From Eledone cirrhosa (Eukaryota), in contig CAXHJY010000158.1 of assembly GCA_964016885.1 (NCBI GenBank), positions 1-64,000 of the forward strand: a DNA stretch of 64,000 nt, written 5' to 3'. The notes below the pieces were generated by a model. It searched no databases, was not told the origin of the DNA, and saw nothing but the letters and a program-made list of their open reading frames with translations. Made by a program: the position numbers and the translations under genes. Numbering within the stretch: the first letter of the stretch is position 1; every line of letters starts with the position of its first letter. Shown in pieces: positions 2,082-54,812 of the stretch.

Positions 2082-2454
2082 TATATACAAAATATATATA
2101 TATATATATAATATATAATATATATATATAATATATATATATAATATATAATATATATAATATATATAATAATATATAATATATAATATATATAATAATA
2201 TATAATATATAATATAATATATAATATATATAATATATAATATATAATATAATATATAATATATAATATATAATATATATAATAATATATAATATATAAT
2301 ATATATAATATATAATATATAATATATATAATATATATATATAATATATATATATAATATATATATATACAAAATATATATATATATATATAATATATAT
2401 AAAATATATATATATAATATATACATATATATATAAAATATATATATATAATAT

Positions 2455-2906
2455 ATACGATATTAAACAAATGGAAACTATATTTATAGAACCATATTTA
2501 TTTCATTATACATATTTCGGGGATACCATATTAAAAATATGGCATGCCTTCTTCAGATAAAATACAATATATAAACAGTTTTATAAATAATTTTGACGTA
2601 CCATAAATATTGAGCAACCGTTATGTAGGAAGCCGACCAAACCGGCTTCCTACATAACGGTTGCTCAATATTTATGGTACGTCAAAATTATTTATAAAAC
2701 TGTTTATATATTGTATTTTATCTGAAGGCATGCCATATTTTTAATATGGTATCCCCGAAATATGTATAATGAAATAAATATGGTTTTATAAATATAGTTT
2801 CCATTTGTTTAATATTGTATATCTACTCTAAAACTTGTCGAGTGCTTTATATCATTTATAAAATATTTACTAGTTGTAACCCAACAATTTTAAATAAAAC
2901 TTTTGC
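2455..2906. mobile_element. Near-perfect ~180-bp-arm palindrome, Penelope-like inverted pLTR
   Basis: Arms ~2455-2635 and ~2643-2820 around spacer accaaac; each arm carries a hammerhead-like motif. Confidence 0.75.
2499..2564 (-). ncRNA. Type I hammerhead ribozyme motif
   Basis: Minus strand: tattttat-CTGAAGA-aggcatgccata..tatggtatcccc-GAAA-tatgta-TA-atgaaata; stem I arms pair; the mirror copy at 2714-2776 has a 3-nt core deletion. Confidence 0.7.
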
Positions 2907-9590: not shown

Positions 9591-9943
9591 TGACATATAT
9601 ATACAAACATACATTCATATATATATATATATATATACAAACATACATTCATATATATATATATATATACAAACATACATTCATATATATATATATATAT
9701 ACAAACATACATTCATATATATATATATATATATACAAACATACATTCATATATATATATATATATACAAACATACATTCATATATATATATATATATAT
9801 ACAAACATACATTCATATATATATATATATATACAAACATACATTCATATATATATATATATATATACAAACATACATTCATATATATATATATATATAC
9901 AAACATACATTCATATATATATATATATATATACAAACATACA

Positions 9944-9983
<40 letters not shown>

Positions 9984-10308
9984 CAAACATACATTCATAT
10001 ATATATATATATATATATATACAAACATACATTCATATATACAAACATACATTTATATATATATATATATATATACAAACATACATTCATATATACAAAC
10101 ATACATTTATATATATATATATATATATATATACAAACATACATTCATATATACAAACATACATTTATATATATATATATATACAAACATACATTCATAT
10201 ATACAAACATACATTTATATATATATATATATATATATACAAACATACATTCATATATACAAACATACATTTATATATATATATATATATATATACAAAC
10301 ATACATTC

Positions 10309-10339
<31 letters not shown>

Positions 10340-10350
10340 AACATACATTC

Positions 10351-10381
<31 letters not shown>

Positions 10382-10441
10382 AACATACATTCATATATAT
10401 ACAAACATACATTCATATATAGATATATATATATATATTAT

Positions 10442-10525
<84 letters not shown>

Positions 10526-10526
<1 letters not shown>

Positions 10527-10685
10527 AGATCAAAAGATGGTTAAAAGAGTTCCATGTATTTTATTATGCGCATTTCAAAAACAAATATCATCATGCAATA
10601 ACATTTGTGTTTTCGTCAGATAAAATAGGGAGACATGATATGACAGTTAAAACACACTTGTGAAGAGTGCAGTTTTAAATCAACA
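10526..10685 (-). mobile_element. 160-bp hammerhead-bearing unit (copy 1)
   Basis: Same ends and near-identical sequence as 57424-57583; flanked by (TA)n. Confidence 0.8.
10557..10627 (-). ncRNA. Intact type I hammerhead ribozyme motif
   Basis: tattttat-CTGACGA-aaacacaaatgttat[tgcatg]atgatatttgttttt-GAAA-tgcgca-TA-ataaaata; perfect 8-bp stem I, palindromic stem III. Confidence 0.88.
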
Positions 10686-10716
10686 TATATATATATATAT
10701 TATAGACAAACATACA

Positions 10717-10776
<60 letters not shown>

Positions 10777-10787
10777 AACATACATTC

Positions 10788-10834
<47 letters not shown>

Positions 10835-10845
10835 AACATACATTC

Positions 10846-10882
<37 letters not shown>

Positions 10883-10939
10883 AACATACATTCATATATA
10901 TATATTATATATATATATATTATATACAAACATACATTC

Positions 10940-10975
<36 letters not shown>

Positions 10976-10982
10976 TCATATG

Positions 10983-11024
<42 letters not shown>

Positions 11025-11076
11025 AACATACATTCATATATATATTATATATATATATATTATATACAAACATACA

Positions 11077-11110
<34 letters not shown>

Positions 11111-11180
11111 AACATACATTCATATGTATATATATACAAACATACATTCATATATATATATATATTATATACAAACATAC

Positions 11181-11211
<31 letters not shown>

Positions 11212-11341
11212 CAAACATACATTTATATATATATATATATATATATTATATACAAACATACATTCATATATATATATATATATAAACATACATTCATATA
11301 TATATATATATACATACATTCATATATATATATATATATAT

Positions 11342-11530
11342 ACGTTATTCCGGGTTGAATCGGAGGTAACCACAGTAAGTAAGGTACTCAATACATTGCA
11401 GAGTATAAAAGTTTTAATATAGATGAGATTCCACAGGACTAGAACTGTTTCATTCTTTAGAAATCATCAGTGATGATTTCTAAAGAATGAAACAGTTCTA
11501 GTCCTGTGGAATCTCATCTATATTAAAACT
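11342..11530. mobile_element. Penelope-like pLTR remnant with perfect 60-bp-arm palindrome centred on a hammerhead core
   Basis: Arms 11410-11469 and 11471-11530; minus strand reads CTGATGA-tttctaaagaat-GAAA-cagttctag-TC-ctgtgg. Confidence 0.75.
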
Positions 11531-13203: not shown

Positions 13204-13343
13204 TCATATATATATATATATATATATACAAACATACATTCATATATATATATATATATATTCATTCTCATCTCGGGAACAATTTTGAATAGCGCTAGTT
13301 CGTAATTTAAACTCGGGAATTTTATATTCTCCGAGTGAAAAGA

Positions 13344-31866: not shown

Positions 31867-32759
31867 CAGGGTGCGGACGACATCTGTTCGCAATTTTCAA
31901 CTGCTAATTTTATGCAAATTATTTTTACTTCCGTTGTCACTCTTGTCTTCATAAAAACAGTGACTATATTTCCATTATTTATTTTCAGAATAATTGATTA
32001 TGAATAATTTTGAACCTCCAAATTTGTGGAAGAGACACGGAGTTCTTCTTGGAATCCGCGCCGGGAGGACAAATAAGGAAATTGCAGACTTTCTCAGCGT
32101 CAGCAGAAGAATGGTGTCTCATCCAAAGACGTGCCCAGAGTCATGCAGACAAAGTTTCCTGCGACAACATTGGTCTTAGGTGTCGTCAGCAGTCAAGGTG
32201 ACGTTATGTCACCTCACTTCTTCCCTGAGAGTCTCAAGCTGAACACCGATGGCTACATCTGCGTTCTGAGCGAGGTAGTAAAGCCCTGGATCGACCAGGT
32301 AGCTGCAGATAGGCCGTACGTGTAGCAGCAAGTCTCAGCGCCCTGCCATACCAGCCGAAAGACCCAAGCCTGGCTGTCAGAGAACTTCATCGACCACACT
32401 TCACCTGACATCTGGCTTCCCAGCTCGCCTGACTGCAACCCCCTCGACTTCTTTGTGTGGGGTGTAGTGGAACGAGACACCAACAGATCTAGCTGCAATA
32501 TGAAAGACGATCTGAAGGCCAAGATCACAAGTGCCTTTAGGGGCCTAAGCCGGGGTACAGTGACGAAGGCCTGTAGCCGGTTCCAAGGCCGCCTTGAGGT
32601 CGTCATCAAAGCCAATCGCGGGTTTATCAAGTGAGATCGAAAGAACAAGTCATGAAGACAAACTGACTCAAGTTTGATAAATATATCTTAAAAAAATAAA
32701 ACTACTGTGTTATTTTTTCCTAGACAGTCATCTTGCGAACAAGTATCGTCTGCACCCTG
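31867..32759 (+). mobile_element. Internally deleted Tc1/mariner element, DD37D (maT) type
   Basis: 27-bp TIRs cagggtgcggacgacatctgttcgcaa / ttgcgaacaagtatcgtctgcaccctg; flanks TA and TG; remnant QQ(V)SAPCH...SPDCNPLDFFVWG with 37 residues between the last two catalytic positions. Confidence 0.9.
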
Positions 32760-44775: not shown

Positions 44776-44954
44776 TGTAGAATTTCATGAATACCATAAA
44801 ATTTCAATGTGTGTGCAAGAGTGTGTAGTTATGTTTTAAATGTCCTCACAATTAGTAGTGGCATATAAAAATTTCAATATCTCTATATACAATAACACCA
44901 GCACGCCCATATCATTCCATAGCAAGCATCAATCTAACTTACCCACCAACACCA

Positions 44955-47470
44955 TCATCAAGCAGATGTGCGAGGCTTTTCAAAAGCACTTTGCCGGATT
45001 GTTCGGAAGGGGCGGGGACCCGGTTGGGGATGTGGACTTCGGTCCATACCTCAACGGCCTGCTGCGTCTCTCGGACAGGGAGGTGAAGTCCTGCGAGGAG
45101 CCAATTTCAGCCACTGAGATAGAGGACATGCTGAGCCAATGCGGCAAACGCAAATCCTCAGGTCTCGATGGTCTTCCATATAAACTATATCTAGCTATGC
45201 CGGACTTGTTCCCCGATCTCCTCGAGGCGGTCTACTGCAACTGGCAACAGAACGGGAGAATTCCCTGTGCTGTGACCAAGGGCGTAGTCACGCTAGTGAG
45301 GAAGGACGAGAACAAGGGGGACAATATAAATAATTTAAGGCCCATAACTCTGCTAAATACAGAGTTACAGATTTTGGCCAAGAGGTTGGCGCTTGTCGTG
45401 GGTAACCTGGTGAGAGATGCGCAGACATGTGCTATCCTGTCCAGGTCCATCCACGACAACCTCCACCTCATGCGATACATCATAGAGAGGGTTGGGAACG
45501 AACCCGGCTTTGGTGGGGCCCTGATCAACTTGGATCAATCTAAGGTATTCGATAGGGTCGACCATGGTTACCTGGATGCGGTGCTAGCGGCGGCAGGCTT
45601 CGGACCCGTTTTCAGGGGCTGGATCAATGCCATGCACAGCAGCCGCATTTGCTCTAGGGTCAAGGTGAACGGCTACCTCTCGGAGCCGTTCGAAATCGCG
45701 CGGTCCATCCGACAGAGGTGCCCTCTCTCCTCCCTTCTGTATGTAGTGACTCTAGAGCCACTGCTGCGGAAGTTAGAGTTGTTGCAGGGCATCCCGTTGG
45801 AACCGGGATTGCGGAAAGCGGTGTCGGCCTACGCCGACGACATTACAATAATGGTGTCTACGGCCTTGGAAATCGGGGCGATTGGCACCTTACTGGAGGA
45901 GTACGAAAGGTTTACAGGGGCTAAGCTGAACCGGGACAAGTCGATCGGTCTGCAACTCGGTACGTGGAGGGGCAGATCGATGCCCTCCGATGGCGTCGTC
46001 GGGCGCTGGACGGAGGACCCGGTGAAGTTGCTTGGGGTCTGGTTCGGACCAGACCTCCAGGTGGAGAAGAACTGGGGTGAGGTAATGAACAGGGTGTTTG
46101 CATTGACCCAGAAGTGGGCCGAGTGCAAACTGTCCCTGAAAGGTCGGGCGGAGGTGGCAAACACTTATATAGCATCCGTCATCTACTACCGCCTGACCGT
46201 TGTGCCTTGCCCAAGGGAAACGCTCGCCAAAATGGAGCGCGCACTCTTCCAATTCCTTTGGAAGAAGCGGGCTCCTATGGTGAGGAGATCCATCTGCTGT
46301 CAACACCCTTCGAAAGGAGGGCTGGGAATGCCGTGGCAAATGATACATAAACACGCATTAAGGCTACAGCACCTCCAGGTATTCCTCTCCGGTCAACCGG
46401 TGTGGGCTCCGTTTGTGAGGCGAGTCCTTCCCAGACTCGTCTCACTCACCGAGCTGCAATCCTGGGTCAAGCAAAGACCGAGAAAACTGGGCGCCTGGCA
46501 CACCGAGTGTGCCCAGGCGCTTACGGCTCTCTGGCAGGCAGACCCGACTGTCAGTGGAGAATCCACCTCGTCATTCTATAGAGGGCTGGTGGTTAGCAGG
46601 TGCGACGACGCACTCGGAGAAGCCCTAGGCATGGAGGAAGACGAACTGGCCAACCTGTTCGGTAGGACATTCAGCCTGGGACCCATGGATAACTTCCAGA
46701 GGTCCCTGGCCTGGCAGTGCTACAGAAGGGCTCTGCCCGTTCGAGAAAGGCTCTACAGACACGGGCGCCCGGGTAGGGACCCCTCGAAAAAGATCCCAGA
46801 TGCGTCTGCGACGAGGAAACCGTTGCTCACGCATTGGTACACTGCTCGGGCATTGCTGATCTGTAGGGCTATGTCGAACAACTGCTGTCAAGGGTGGGAC
46901 CGATCCGGTTGACCACCGAGTCTATTGTAACGATCAAGCCGCCTCCCCTCTTCAAAAACGAAGGAGAGGCGGTGTTTCTGTGCGTAATAGCCATGGCGAA
47001 AGAGGTTGTATGGTGGACAAGTCTGAAAGGACTGAGGTCAGACACCTTTCTCTCTGGCCAACAACTGGTCCGTTTCTTCCGATATCATTTCGGAAGAAGG
47101 ATCGGGATGGAGAGAGAGGTGTTGCACCCCAGCCGTTTTTATGAAAGATGGGTGAAAGTGGCGAGAATGGCCCGTGTGAATGGGCCTTCACTCTACATAA
47201 GACTATAGGTGAGGAAGATGAAAGACCAAGGGAGCACCCCTTCTCTGTGCTCCTGAGGAAAAGGGTTGCACACTTTTTTCGGGGGTGTGTGCGACCCCCC
47301 CAAGGCGCCTCCTCTCTATTGAGGATTTTGTTATATATTTTATTCTGTTATATTTTATTTTATTCTTATATTTTGTTATTGCCTCCTCCTTATTGAGGAG
47401 GCCTTTTTGTGTAAACTCCCCCCATTGTACTTGTCCCACTTTTGATGCCCTGGTGGCAAATAAAAGAAAC
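44955..47470 (+). mobile_element. Tx1/L1-clade LINE, 5'-truncated
   Basis: ORF to 46912: RPITLLN, LDQSKVFDRVDH, YADD, LSLKGR, GGLG; frameshifted CCHC knuckle C..C..EETVAHALVHC near 46800; ends aataaaagaaac then (TA)n. Confidence 0.88.
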
Positions 47471-53670: not shown

Positions 53671-53789
53671 TATATATAAATATATTTATATATATAAATA
53701 TATATATTTATATATTTATATATAAATATATTTATATATATAAATATATGTATATATAAATATATATATATAAATATATATATATAAAT

Positions 53790-54810
53790 ATTTTCTACCA
53801 CCTTTATTTTTTTACCACCTTTATTTTTAATCGTAATATTGCCAGAATTAATAACAGAACACACTCACTGTTTAAAAATAAAGGTGGTAGAAAAGCCAGG
53901 AACCACCATAAAATCCCTGATCAGCAAAACCTACCCTTTTAAGAAAACCCACTGTACCAATAGGAAATGTATCATATGTAAGGTGAACCCCCGGATAAAC
54001 TGTAAAACTAGAAACGTAGTCTATAGCATAAGATGTACAGAGGGTACTTGCAGAAACATGACAACAACATACATAGGTGAGACAGCTTGTAGCATAGGTG
54101 AAAGGATAGACCAACACTGGGGGGAACTAAAAGGACGAAAAAACGGGTCAGTACTATACGAACATGCTAGACAACAACATGACGGTAACATAGACAACAT
54201 AGAAATTAGAATAATATCTAAACATAGGAATGACCCAGCAGATAGGCAAATCAGAGAGGCCAGTGAAATAGAAATTAGAAAGAATGAGTGGAACAACAAC
54301 AAACAACACTGACCTAAGAGAAGTATAGATAAGTAAATAAAATAAAATAAAATAAGATAAATAAATACATACACAAGCACATAAACACACACTAGTCACC
54401 CAGCAGACACAACACTATAAACACTAGTCACACATCACACATAACACTATACACACACGCAAACGCATGCGCAAAGAAGACAAAATAAAATAAGATAAAC
54501 AAACAAGCAAATAAATAAATAAATATATAGACAGACTGAACAAAAAAATGGCGTAGACATACAACACAACAGGAGGAACAATGAATATAACACCACTGAC
54601 GAAAGATTTATGTAAATTATGTAAACTATATATATGTGTTTGTGTCTATATTGTATCTGTATTATTTTTGACCGCCGGTCAGTCAATGGCAACATTGAGG
54701 ACCGAGTAAGTTAGATCGCAGATATAAAAGACAGCGAGAAGCGAAAACCAACCAAACAGTGAGTGTGTTCTGTTATTAATTCTGGCAATATTACGCAAAT
54801 ATGACCCTCC

Positions 54811-54812
<2 letters not shown>
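53790..54812 (+). mobile_element. Penelope-like element 3' fragment (GIY-YIG endonuclease and pLTR region)
   Basis: ORF 53839..54312: CIIC, NVVYSIRC, YIGET, ERIDQH, LYEH, IREA; 53832-53873 is repeated inverted at 54754-54795; degenerate CTGACGA motif at 54596. Confidence 0.85.

Follow-up and report, generated by a model that had tools for sequence, protein, structure and literature searches.

A candidate solo pseudo-LTR family with a predicted hammerhead ribozyme, inserted in (TA)n and abundant in public reads

A 160-bp unit occurs twice in the window (i.e., the whole 64-kb stretch of DNA analysed here), which is animal DNA dense in (TA)n and LINE fragments. The reading that we favor, with moderate confidence, is that this unit belongs to an abundant (TA)n-inserted family with a predicted hammerhead, and that its copies are solo pseudo-LTRs written by a Penelope-like reverse transcriptase (RT)/endonuclease from a longer source RNA. 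The element is likely of a known kind, with the family as a new and abundant member, and a stand-alone 160-nt replicon is not required by the data. Earlier inspection of the letters alone (the sequence-only reading) had proposed a fixed-length, non-autonomous ribozyme retroelement; retro-copying, insertion into (TA)n, high abundance and preferred ends were supported for the family, but the unit as a mobile element in itself was not, given a conserved tail and inverted arms that lie beyond it.

Two copies in (TA)n and their hammerhead motif

Both copies (A and B; Table 1) aligned without gaps (96.9% identity, 5 differences, E 6e-74) and were the sole full matches of the unit in the 64-kb window, according to window self-comparison and nhmmer. 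They start at the identical first base, preceded in each case by 19 nt of pure TA, and both continue at the other side into the 9-letter stretch ATATATTAT, so that the 3' boundary is ambiguous within 57583–57592. Since the tail-less arm of a diverged sibling element (see below) also continues into ATATATTAT, this patch may be target rather than element. Neither insertion into (TA)n left a readable target duplication, and the short TA run in front of B itself lies behind a different hammerhead element. The sequence-only reading of two copies with the same two ends, both within (TA)n, was thus borne out. Segmental duplication, for which homologous flanks were sought, was rejected because the flanks of A and B are unrelated. 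The unit is non-coding, with low GC and stop codons in all three frames; a reading frame that opens within stem II, a feature of the Anolis element, was rejected, as only a 17-codon stretch ending at 57566–57568 was found.

Table 1. Features of the unit, its insertion sites and related elements (positions in the window)
Feature	Position	Strand	Basis or remark
Copy B of the 160-bp unit (solo pseudo-LTR-like repeat)	57424..57583	+	sequence comparison
Copy A of the 160-bp unit, 155/160 identical to B	10526..10685	-	sequence comparison
Type I hammerhead of B (predicted)	57482..57552	+	descriptor search
Hammerhead of A, predicted cut between 10565 and 10564	10557..10627	-	descriptor and alignment
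Imperfect 5' hairpin, 12-bp inner stem 57431-57462	57427..57468; equivalent in A 10641-10682	+ in B; - in A	folding
TA-like junction patch ATATATTAT, contains the 3' end	57584..57592 in B; 10517-10525 in A	+ in B; - in A	tail-bearing copies depart at 57584-57597
(TA)n target upstream of B	57388..57423	.	sequence
Degenerate (AT)n array hosting A	9595..11342	.	sequence
Diverged sibling element	2453..2906	.	head-to-head arms 2453-2635 and 2643-2822
Different hammerhead element directly upstream of B	57158..57386	+	inverted arm and tail

The unit contains the complete layout of a type I hammerhead, i.e., a CUGANGA / GAAA / UH core and three helices, open at helix I. In B, stem I (57482–57489/57545–57552) pairs at all 8 of its 8 positions, the core consists of CUGACGA (57490–57496) and GAAA (57533–57536), and stem II (57497–57532) is paired at 15 of 16 positions, with a C.U mismatch at position 4 (57500/57529) for which no variant was found among those listed in the reads. 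Stem III is the 8-nt palindrome AUGCGCAU (57536–57543), which would form 2 pairs in a monomer versus 8 in a dimer (computed self-duplex energy of -10.5 kcal/mol). The core-adjacent G10.1-C11.1 pair is absent, with A-U in both A and B, and the sole stem II difference between the copies is A-U in A vs. G-U in B. The full core, perfect 8-bp stem I, palindromic stem III and pair-preserving stem II difference claimed from the letters were all recovered by the descriptor and the pairing. The 16-bp length of stem II, the 5' hairpin described below and the A-U in place of G-C beside the core had gone unmentioned in that reading. The predicted cut in B falls after 57544, i.e., 121 nt behind the unit's 5' end and 39–48 nt before its 3' end. 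Because both ends differ from the cut site, the template was either uncut or rejoined.

The descriptor matched 4 times in the window when stem I was at least 7 bp and 6 times when it was at least 5 bp, whereas 100 block-wise dinucleotide shuffles gave 0.01 matches on average and never more than 1, confirming that the motif occurs far above chance. A match at 25346, located within an RT reading frame, failed a stricter descriptor and was treated as a chance hit. The hammerhead model search suggested along with the sequence-only reading came out negative, in that the Rfam models gave no hammerhead match on the unit, either at the gathering threshold or at E ≤ 10. Fold stability was likewise unremarkable against shuffles (z of -0.69 for the unit, and -0.63 and -0.97 for the cores).

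At the 5' end, the unit is predicted to form an imperfect hairpin (-9.2 and -10.2 kcal/mol; z of -2.2 and -2.5; equalled by 5 and 3 of 200 shuffles). A second ribozyme or a tRNA head at this end was rejected for want of Rfam support, and the Rfam search of the unit yielded no match to a Pol III RNA-derived head (i.e., a SINE head of tRNA, 5S or 7SL type). When a paired-hairpin start signal was examined, the hairpins near the ends of the unit and of the sibling folded no better than shuffles.

The family in public reads

Among the public runs listed, 11 of 15 contained the stretch or part of it, and 4 contained at least half of its words; the run richest in them may derive from the source sample. 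Six runs were aligned to the stretch; runs X6–X11 contained fewer than 5 words each, and of these only X8 was used. The first read alignment targeted the bare 160-base unit, and the second a flanked version that skipped the TA flank and the unit's first letters. Matches to the bare unit were found in 2418 contigs of X1, 42 of X4 and 5 of X8, and in 3286 reads of X13. The family is present in runs labelled as other species, too. Summed contig depth in X1 was 0.35–2.0 million, versus about 9–39 per single listed contig; the resulting ratio of 9,000–217,000 gives an order of magnitude only, as depth sums are no copy number. We infer a family size in the order of 10^4–10^5 copies, which fits its two occurrences within 64 kb.

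Among the variants listed, 15 of the 71 hammerhead positions varied and none of the 12 catalytic core positions did (p of 0.04), while 9 of 12 stem variants preserved pairing. The three pair-breaking variants each reached at most 1.2% of X1 depth, as compared to up to 59% for pair-keeping ones, and one of the three is likely the partner of the G at 57497 (26% of X1 depth has G at 57497, and 1.2% has C at 57532). Against a transitions-only null, pairing was preserved in 9 of 10 (p about 0.04), which is a modest signal; many of the pair-keeping changes are A>G, so that tolerated G.U wobbles or RNA editing could also yield them. The invariant core and the pair-keeping stem variants together argue, modestly, for selection on the fold. 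The reads further contain several co-varying subfamilies. At 57514–57525, unaligned read ends reveal sister subfamilies with a different 5' strand of stem II, and one of these haplotypes turns most wobbles into Watson-Crick pairs while retaining the C at the mismatch.

Regarding the 5' end, X13 depth was 676 in the first bin vs. 826 at 57448–57453, which indicates that most copies reach the unit's start. Junctions at 57425–57426 were seen as a loose end of 130 reads (mixed, with an agreement of 0.72), in one X1 contig and in one joint. It is very improbable that the copies are a segmental duplicate, or ordinary 5'-truncated Penelope 3' ends whose 5' ends coincide by chance: A and B have unrelated flanks, two or more additional junctions in the reads show this 5' end again, and depth does not fall steadily toward the 5' end. 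Some truncated copies do exist (i.e., a 1066-nt X1 contig that aligned only from 57451, and loose ends before 57517 in 139–158 reads), the 3' part of the unit has about twice the X1 depth of its 5' part, and most hammerheads in PMC4209133 are single and ascribed there to truncated elements, all of which would fit such debris. The sequence-only view that the unit is no random truncation debris nevertheless held, as ends are preferred across the family even though some copies are 5'-truncated.

The 3' side was more diverse. Some copies continue in TA, 37 X1 contigs belong to a subfamily with a different last stretch behind 57577, and 27 X1 contigs depart behind 57597 with one and the same sequence (agreement 0.97), i.e., a conserved 3' tail. 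Two distinct tail variants were found in the RAD runs, the larger in 1212, 1640 and 1449 reads behind 57587 (X13, X14 and X15) and the second in 92 and 121 reads behind 57584 (X13 and X14). The larger variant continues for at least 97 nt, and since its reads share a single fixed end and a stem III change of their own (57538), its signal probably stems from one locus. The tail motif and the motif of the 5' loose end were both absent from the window when up to 3 mismatches were allowed (0 and 0), and searches for unit or tail motifs in sequence collections gave 0 and 0 hits for metagenomes, 0 and 0 for viruses and 0 for prokaryote genomes.

One joint connected 57425 to 57545 with a change of strand (3 reads that begin at 2 different starts; not among the joints listed for the second alignment). 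The inverted arm in this joint begins immediately past the predicted cut (57545), and no such arm is present in A or B. Head-to-tail (tandem) joints were absent among the joints listed (2 and 0), within a reach of spacers that fit 150-nt reads; reads fitting two places on the unit numbered 0 in each RAD run and 1 in X1, and A and B are each single in the window. In the sequence-only reading, such motifs were said to act often as dimers: the stem III is indeed of the dimer type found in Penelope pseudo-LTRs, but no tandem copy was seen and there is no visible partner in cis. A short circle closing the tail to the 5' end, suggested by a 4-letter overlap of two loose ends, was set aside, as no such joint was listed.

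The same data bear on whether the unit represents one constant segment of a longer, non-coding retrozyme monomer, present elsewhere as a tandem array or RNA circle, with RT starting at the TA-like patch and stalling or self-priming at the 5' hairpin. Copies that span the cut site would be expected of circle-templated cDNA, one RAD locus runs on for 97 nt or more, and another family in the window forms a 486-nt two-hammerhead tandem (13260–14104). Moreover, solo monomers of retrozyme families are reported as common and as derived from pseudo-LTRs (bioRxiv 10.64898/2026.07.22.740005). However, with no head-to-tail joint among those listed (for spacers within 150-nt reads) and both window copies single, we hold this origin to be quite unlikely.

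A diverged sibling and the proposed copying route

The sibling element (Table 1) is collinear with the unit, a score equalled by 2 of 1000 shuffles. Its hammerhead at 2556 (-) has the same 5' strand of stem I as the unit, with a C.C mismatch at position 4 of stem II. A tail (about 2823–2906) is found on the right arm only, and this tailed arm is without 3 nt of the catalytic core. In a targeted test, the start of the sibling tail matched a read tail at the same offset (0.12% of 5000 shuffles reached its score); window-wide the match was not significant (score of 24 vs. a shuffled-motif mean of 24.6), and the other two of the three tails tested gave no match. By its arrangement, the sibling shows the full Penelope layout, i.e., head-to-head arms with a one-sided tail.

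The hammerhead element directly upstream of B carries an arm (57158–57198) that is the reverse complement of 57281–57321 (41 nt) and ends within 2 nt of this element's predicted cut (after 57282), which it overshoots by 2 nt. Its 65-nt tail (57322–57386) folds into two hairpins (z of -2.8). Kinship of the unit with this element, or with the one at 13260, was rejected in the absence of similarity outside the core.

A biochemical precedent for the favored reading, i.e., solo pseudo-LTRs from a longer source, is the Anolis element (PMC11167929), whose protein nicks AT-rich DNA and whose cDNA starts at two internal sites bounding the tail. In vitro, RNA beyond the start sites was required, product length tracked the template's 5' end, and uncut RNA was the main template; the study further reports no RNA reads ending at the hammerhead cut, and cutting was dispensable for insertion in vitro. 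In Penelope, the transcript starts inside the upstream pseudo-LTR (PMC2377424).

By analogy, transcription of a source locus, be it a Penelope-like element with an ORF or a non-coding derivative, would begin at the pseudo-LTR 5' end and proceed across the hammerhead and the TA-like patch into and along the tail. On the model of PMC11167929, the enzyme would then nick a TA run and begin cDNA synthesis within the RNA, at either of two fixed positions: a start at the TA-like patch would give tail-less copies such as A and B, and a start behind the tail would give tailed copies. Copying across the uncut hammerhead to the RNA 5' end would produce two fixed ends about 160–168 bp apart. An RT start within the RNA thus likely determines the unit's 3' boundary, and the template's 5' terminus its 5' boundary. 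This route, with an RT start at the patch and run-off at the RNA 5' end, calls for a longer source and does not require the unit to be a replicon itself. Most solo copies that lack a tail are probably dead ends.

A cut hammerhead, in turn, might present a template that begins at 57545 and give rise to an arm of ~40 nt, inverted before a full arm. A bolder proposal, which strikes us as rather doubtful, combines two claims: that the family records two 5' ends of its template RNA, the transcript start (57424) in its full arms and the hammerhead cut (57545) in its short inverted ones, as would be genomic evidence of cutting in vivo and of reverse transcription of the cut RNA, and that the tail-less 160–168-nt unit is a self-propagating ribozyme parasite with tens of thousands of copies. 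If, across the genome, inverted arms do accumulate at the cut site, in vivo cutting would be answered from DNA alone.

Self-propagation taken by itself, i.e., a 160–168-nt SINE-like parasite of the Penelope enzyme, seems unlikely. Transcription would set out from the adjacent TA run or from a promoter inside the unit and read through into the downstream (TA)n, with the transcript serving as template for new copies. Consistent with it are two dispersed copies with the same two ends and 5 differences, 5' junctions at 57425–57426 in further loci, the large share of copies that reach the 5' end (676 vs. 826 in X13), the several co-varying subfamilies, and the internal promoter shown for Drosophila virilis Penelope (PMC2377424). 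The conserved tail and inverted arms nevertheless lie beyond the unit, and RT needs RNA beyond the start sites in the sole system examined in vitro (PMC11167929), whereas tail-less copies are without it. Moreover, the 2-bp stem III of a lone copy would find nothing in cis to pair with, so that a longer or tandem source accounts more readily for the conserved core. If it is true that solo copies beget copies, the family would amount to a minimal SINE analogue that depends on Penelope; in any case, a very large family with fixed ends offers material for mapping where Penelope cDNAs start and stop.

Judged on the features examined, the unit likely works like a Penelope pseudo-LTR, having a palindromic helix III near the 3' end, an optional tail and insertion into (TA)n (PMC4209133, PMC3846280, PMC8557442, PMC6765202). 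With the hammerheads of Penelope-like pseudo-LTRs (Cervera and de la Pena 2014, PMC4209133) it shares the type I core, a long helix II, a short palindromic helix III suited to dimers, and mostly single motifs dispersed in sequence families. It differs from the examples described there by a helix II of 16 bp with a fixed C.U mismatch (vs. 7–8 bp), by A-U instead of G10.1-C11.1 in A and B, and by a helix I of 8 bp in both copies.

Penelope elements are described with an optional tail, an inverted pseudo-LTR, a 5' palindrome and solo pseudo-LTRs of about 190–220 bp (PMC3846280). The pseudo-LTRs of Adineta Penelope elements (PMC3846280) and of Poseidon_Ac (PMC11167929) resemble the unit in their size class and AT-rich target, in a palindrome-like hairpin at the 5' end, in a tail on one side and in a 3' end downstream of an uncut hammerhead; a head-to-head arm, absent from A and B, may be shared, given the 3 joint reads and its clear presence in the sibling. 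Unlike the unit, which has no ORF start and whose solo copies are very numerous with preferred ends, the solo copies reported there are few and ascribed to recombination or deletion. Targeting of (TA)n is known for Hydra and Naiad elements, and a microsatellite bias for Neptune (Craig et al. 2021, PMC8557442). Hydra-clade elements combine (TA)n insertion with canonical hammerheads as well; the hammerhead of Hydra-1_oBim in the supplement, however, has a different sequence, and none of four 12-nt unit motifs was found in the supplement text among the entries shown.

Metazoan non-LTR retrozymes (PMC7229834; bioRxiv 10.64898/2026.07.22.740005) are also non-coding and AT-rich, of the 150–450 bp class, equipped with a type I hammerhead and probably moved by Penelope enzymes, and solo monomers occur among them. 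In contrast to these, no tandem form was found at A, at B or among the listed joints, and the unit's ends are not the cut site; for lack of a tandem form, the unit was not classed as a retrozyme. The literature consulted yielded no description of the family, although Repbase or Dfam may contain it as an unclassified SINE or Penelope entry, and the word 'ribozyme' is absent from the excerpted main text of an octopus repeat annotation (PMC13282606).

Other elements in the window

A 5'-truncated Penelope-type fragment in (TA)n was found at 53788–54812 (+), with a C-terminal GIY-YIG frame (53788–54312) that shares 40% identity with an RT-EN protein across 149 aa and gave no match in Pfam. In the window comparison, this GIY-YIG fragment did not match the unit. 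The 3' UTR contains CTGACGA at about 54597, with no canonical hammerhead by the descriptor, and a 42-bp perfect inverted copy of the fragment's near-3' end lies at 53832–53873, together with short inverted duplications. Its C-x4-C-x2-C linker suggests the Neptune type according to the motifs given in PMC8557442, with no tie to the unit family.

The other hammerhead-bearing tandem (13260–14104, +) consists of two 359-bp direct repeats, 96% identical and 486 bp apart, between TA runs. Each repeat has a type I hammerhead by the descriptor (cores at 13349 and 13835, with a 55-nt stem II region), and by this arrangement the locus is a retrozyme- or pseudo-LTR-like partial tandem of a different family.

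Finally, a tRNA-like head (Rfam tRNA, 29.4 bits) at 55015–55072 (-) belongs to a repeat with further copies, e.g., near 14115, and this repeat is probably a tRNA-derived SINE. A short frame at 32326–32634 (+) resembles the end of a Tc1/mariner transposase by motif. An open LINE frame of 1066 codons at 58333–61533 (+) encodes an endonuclease and RT, with a PHD-finger match after the RT and many related fragments in the window, and two more RT-coding frames, at 44840–46912 (+) and 24643–25944 (+), are of other LINE types.
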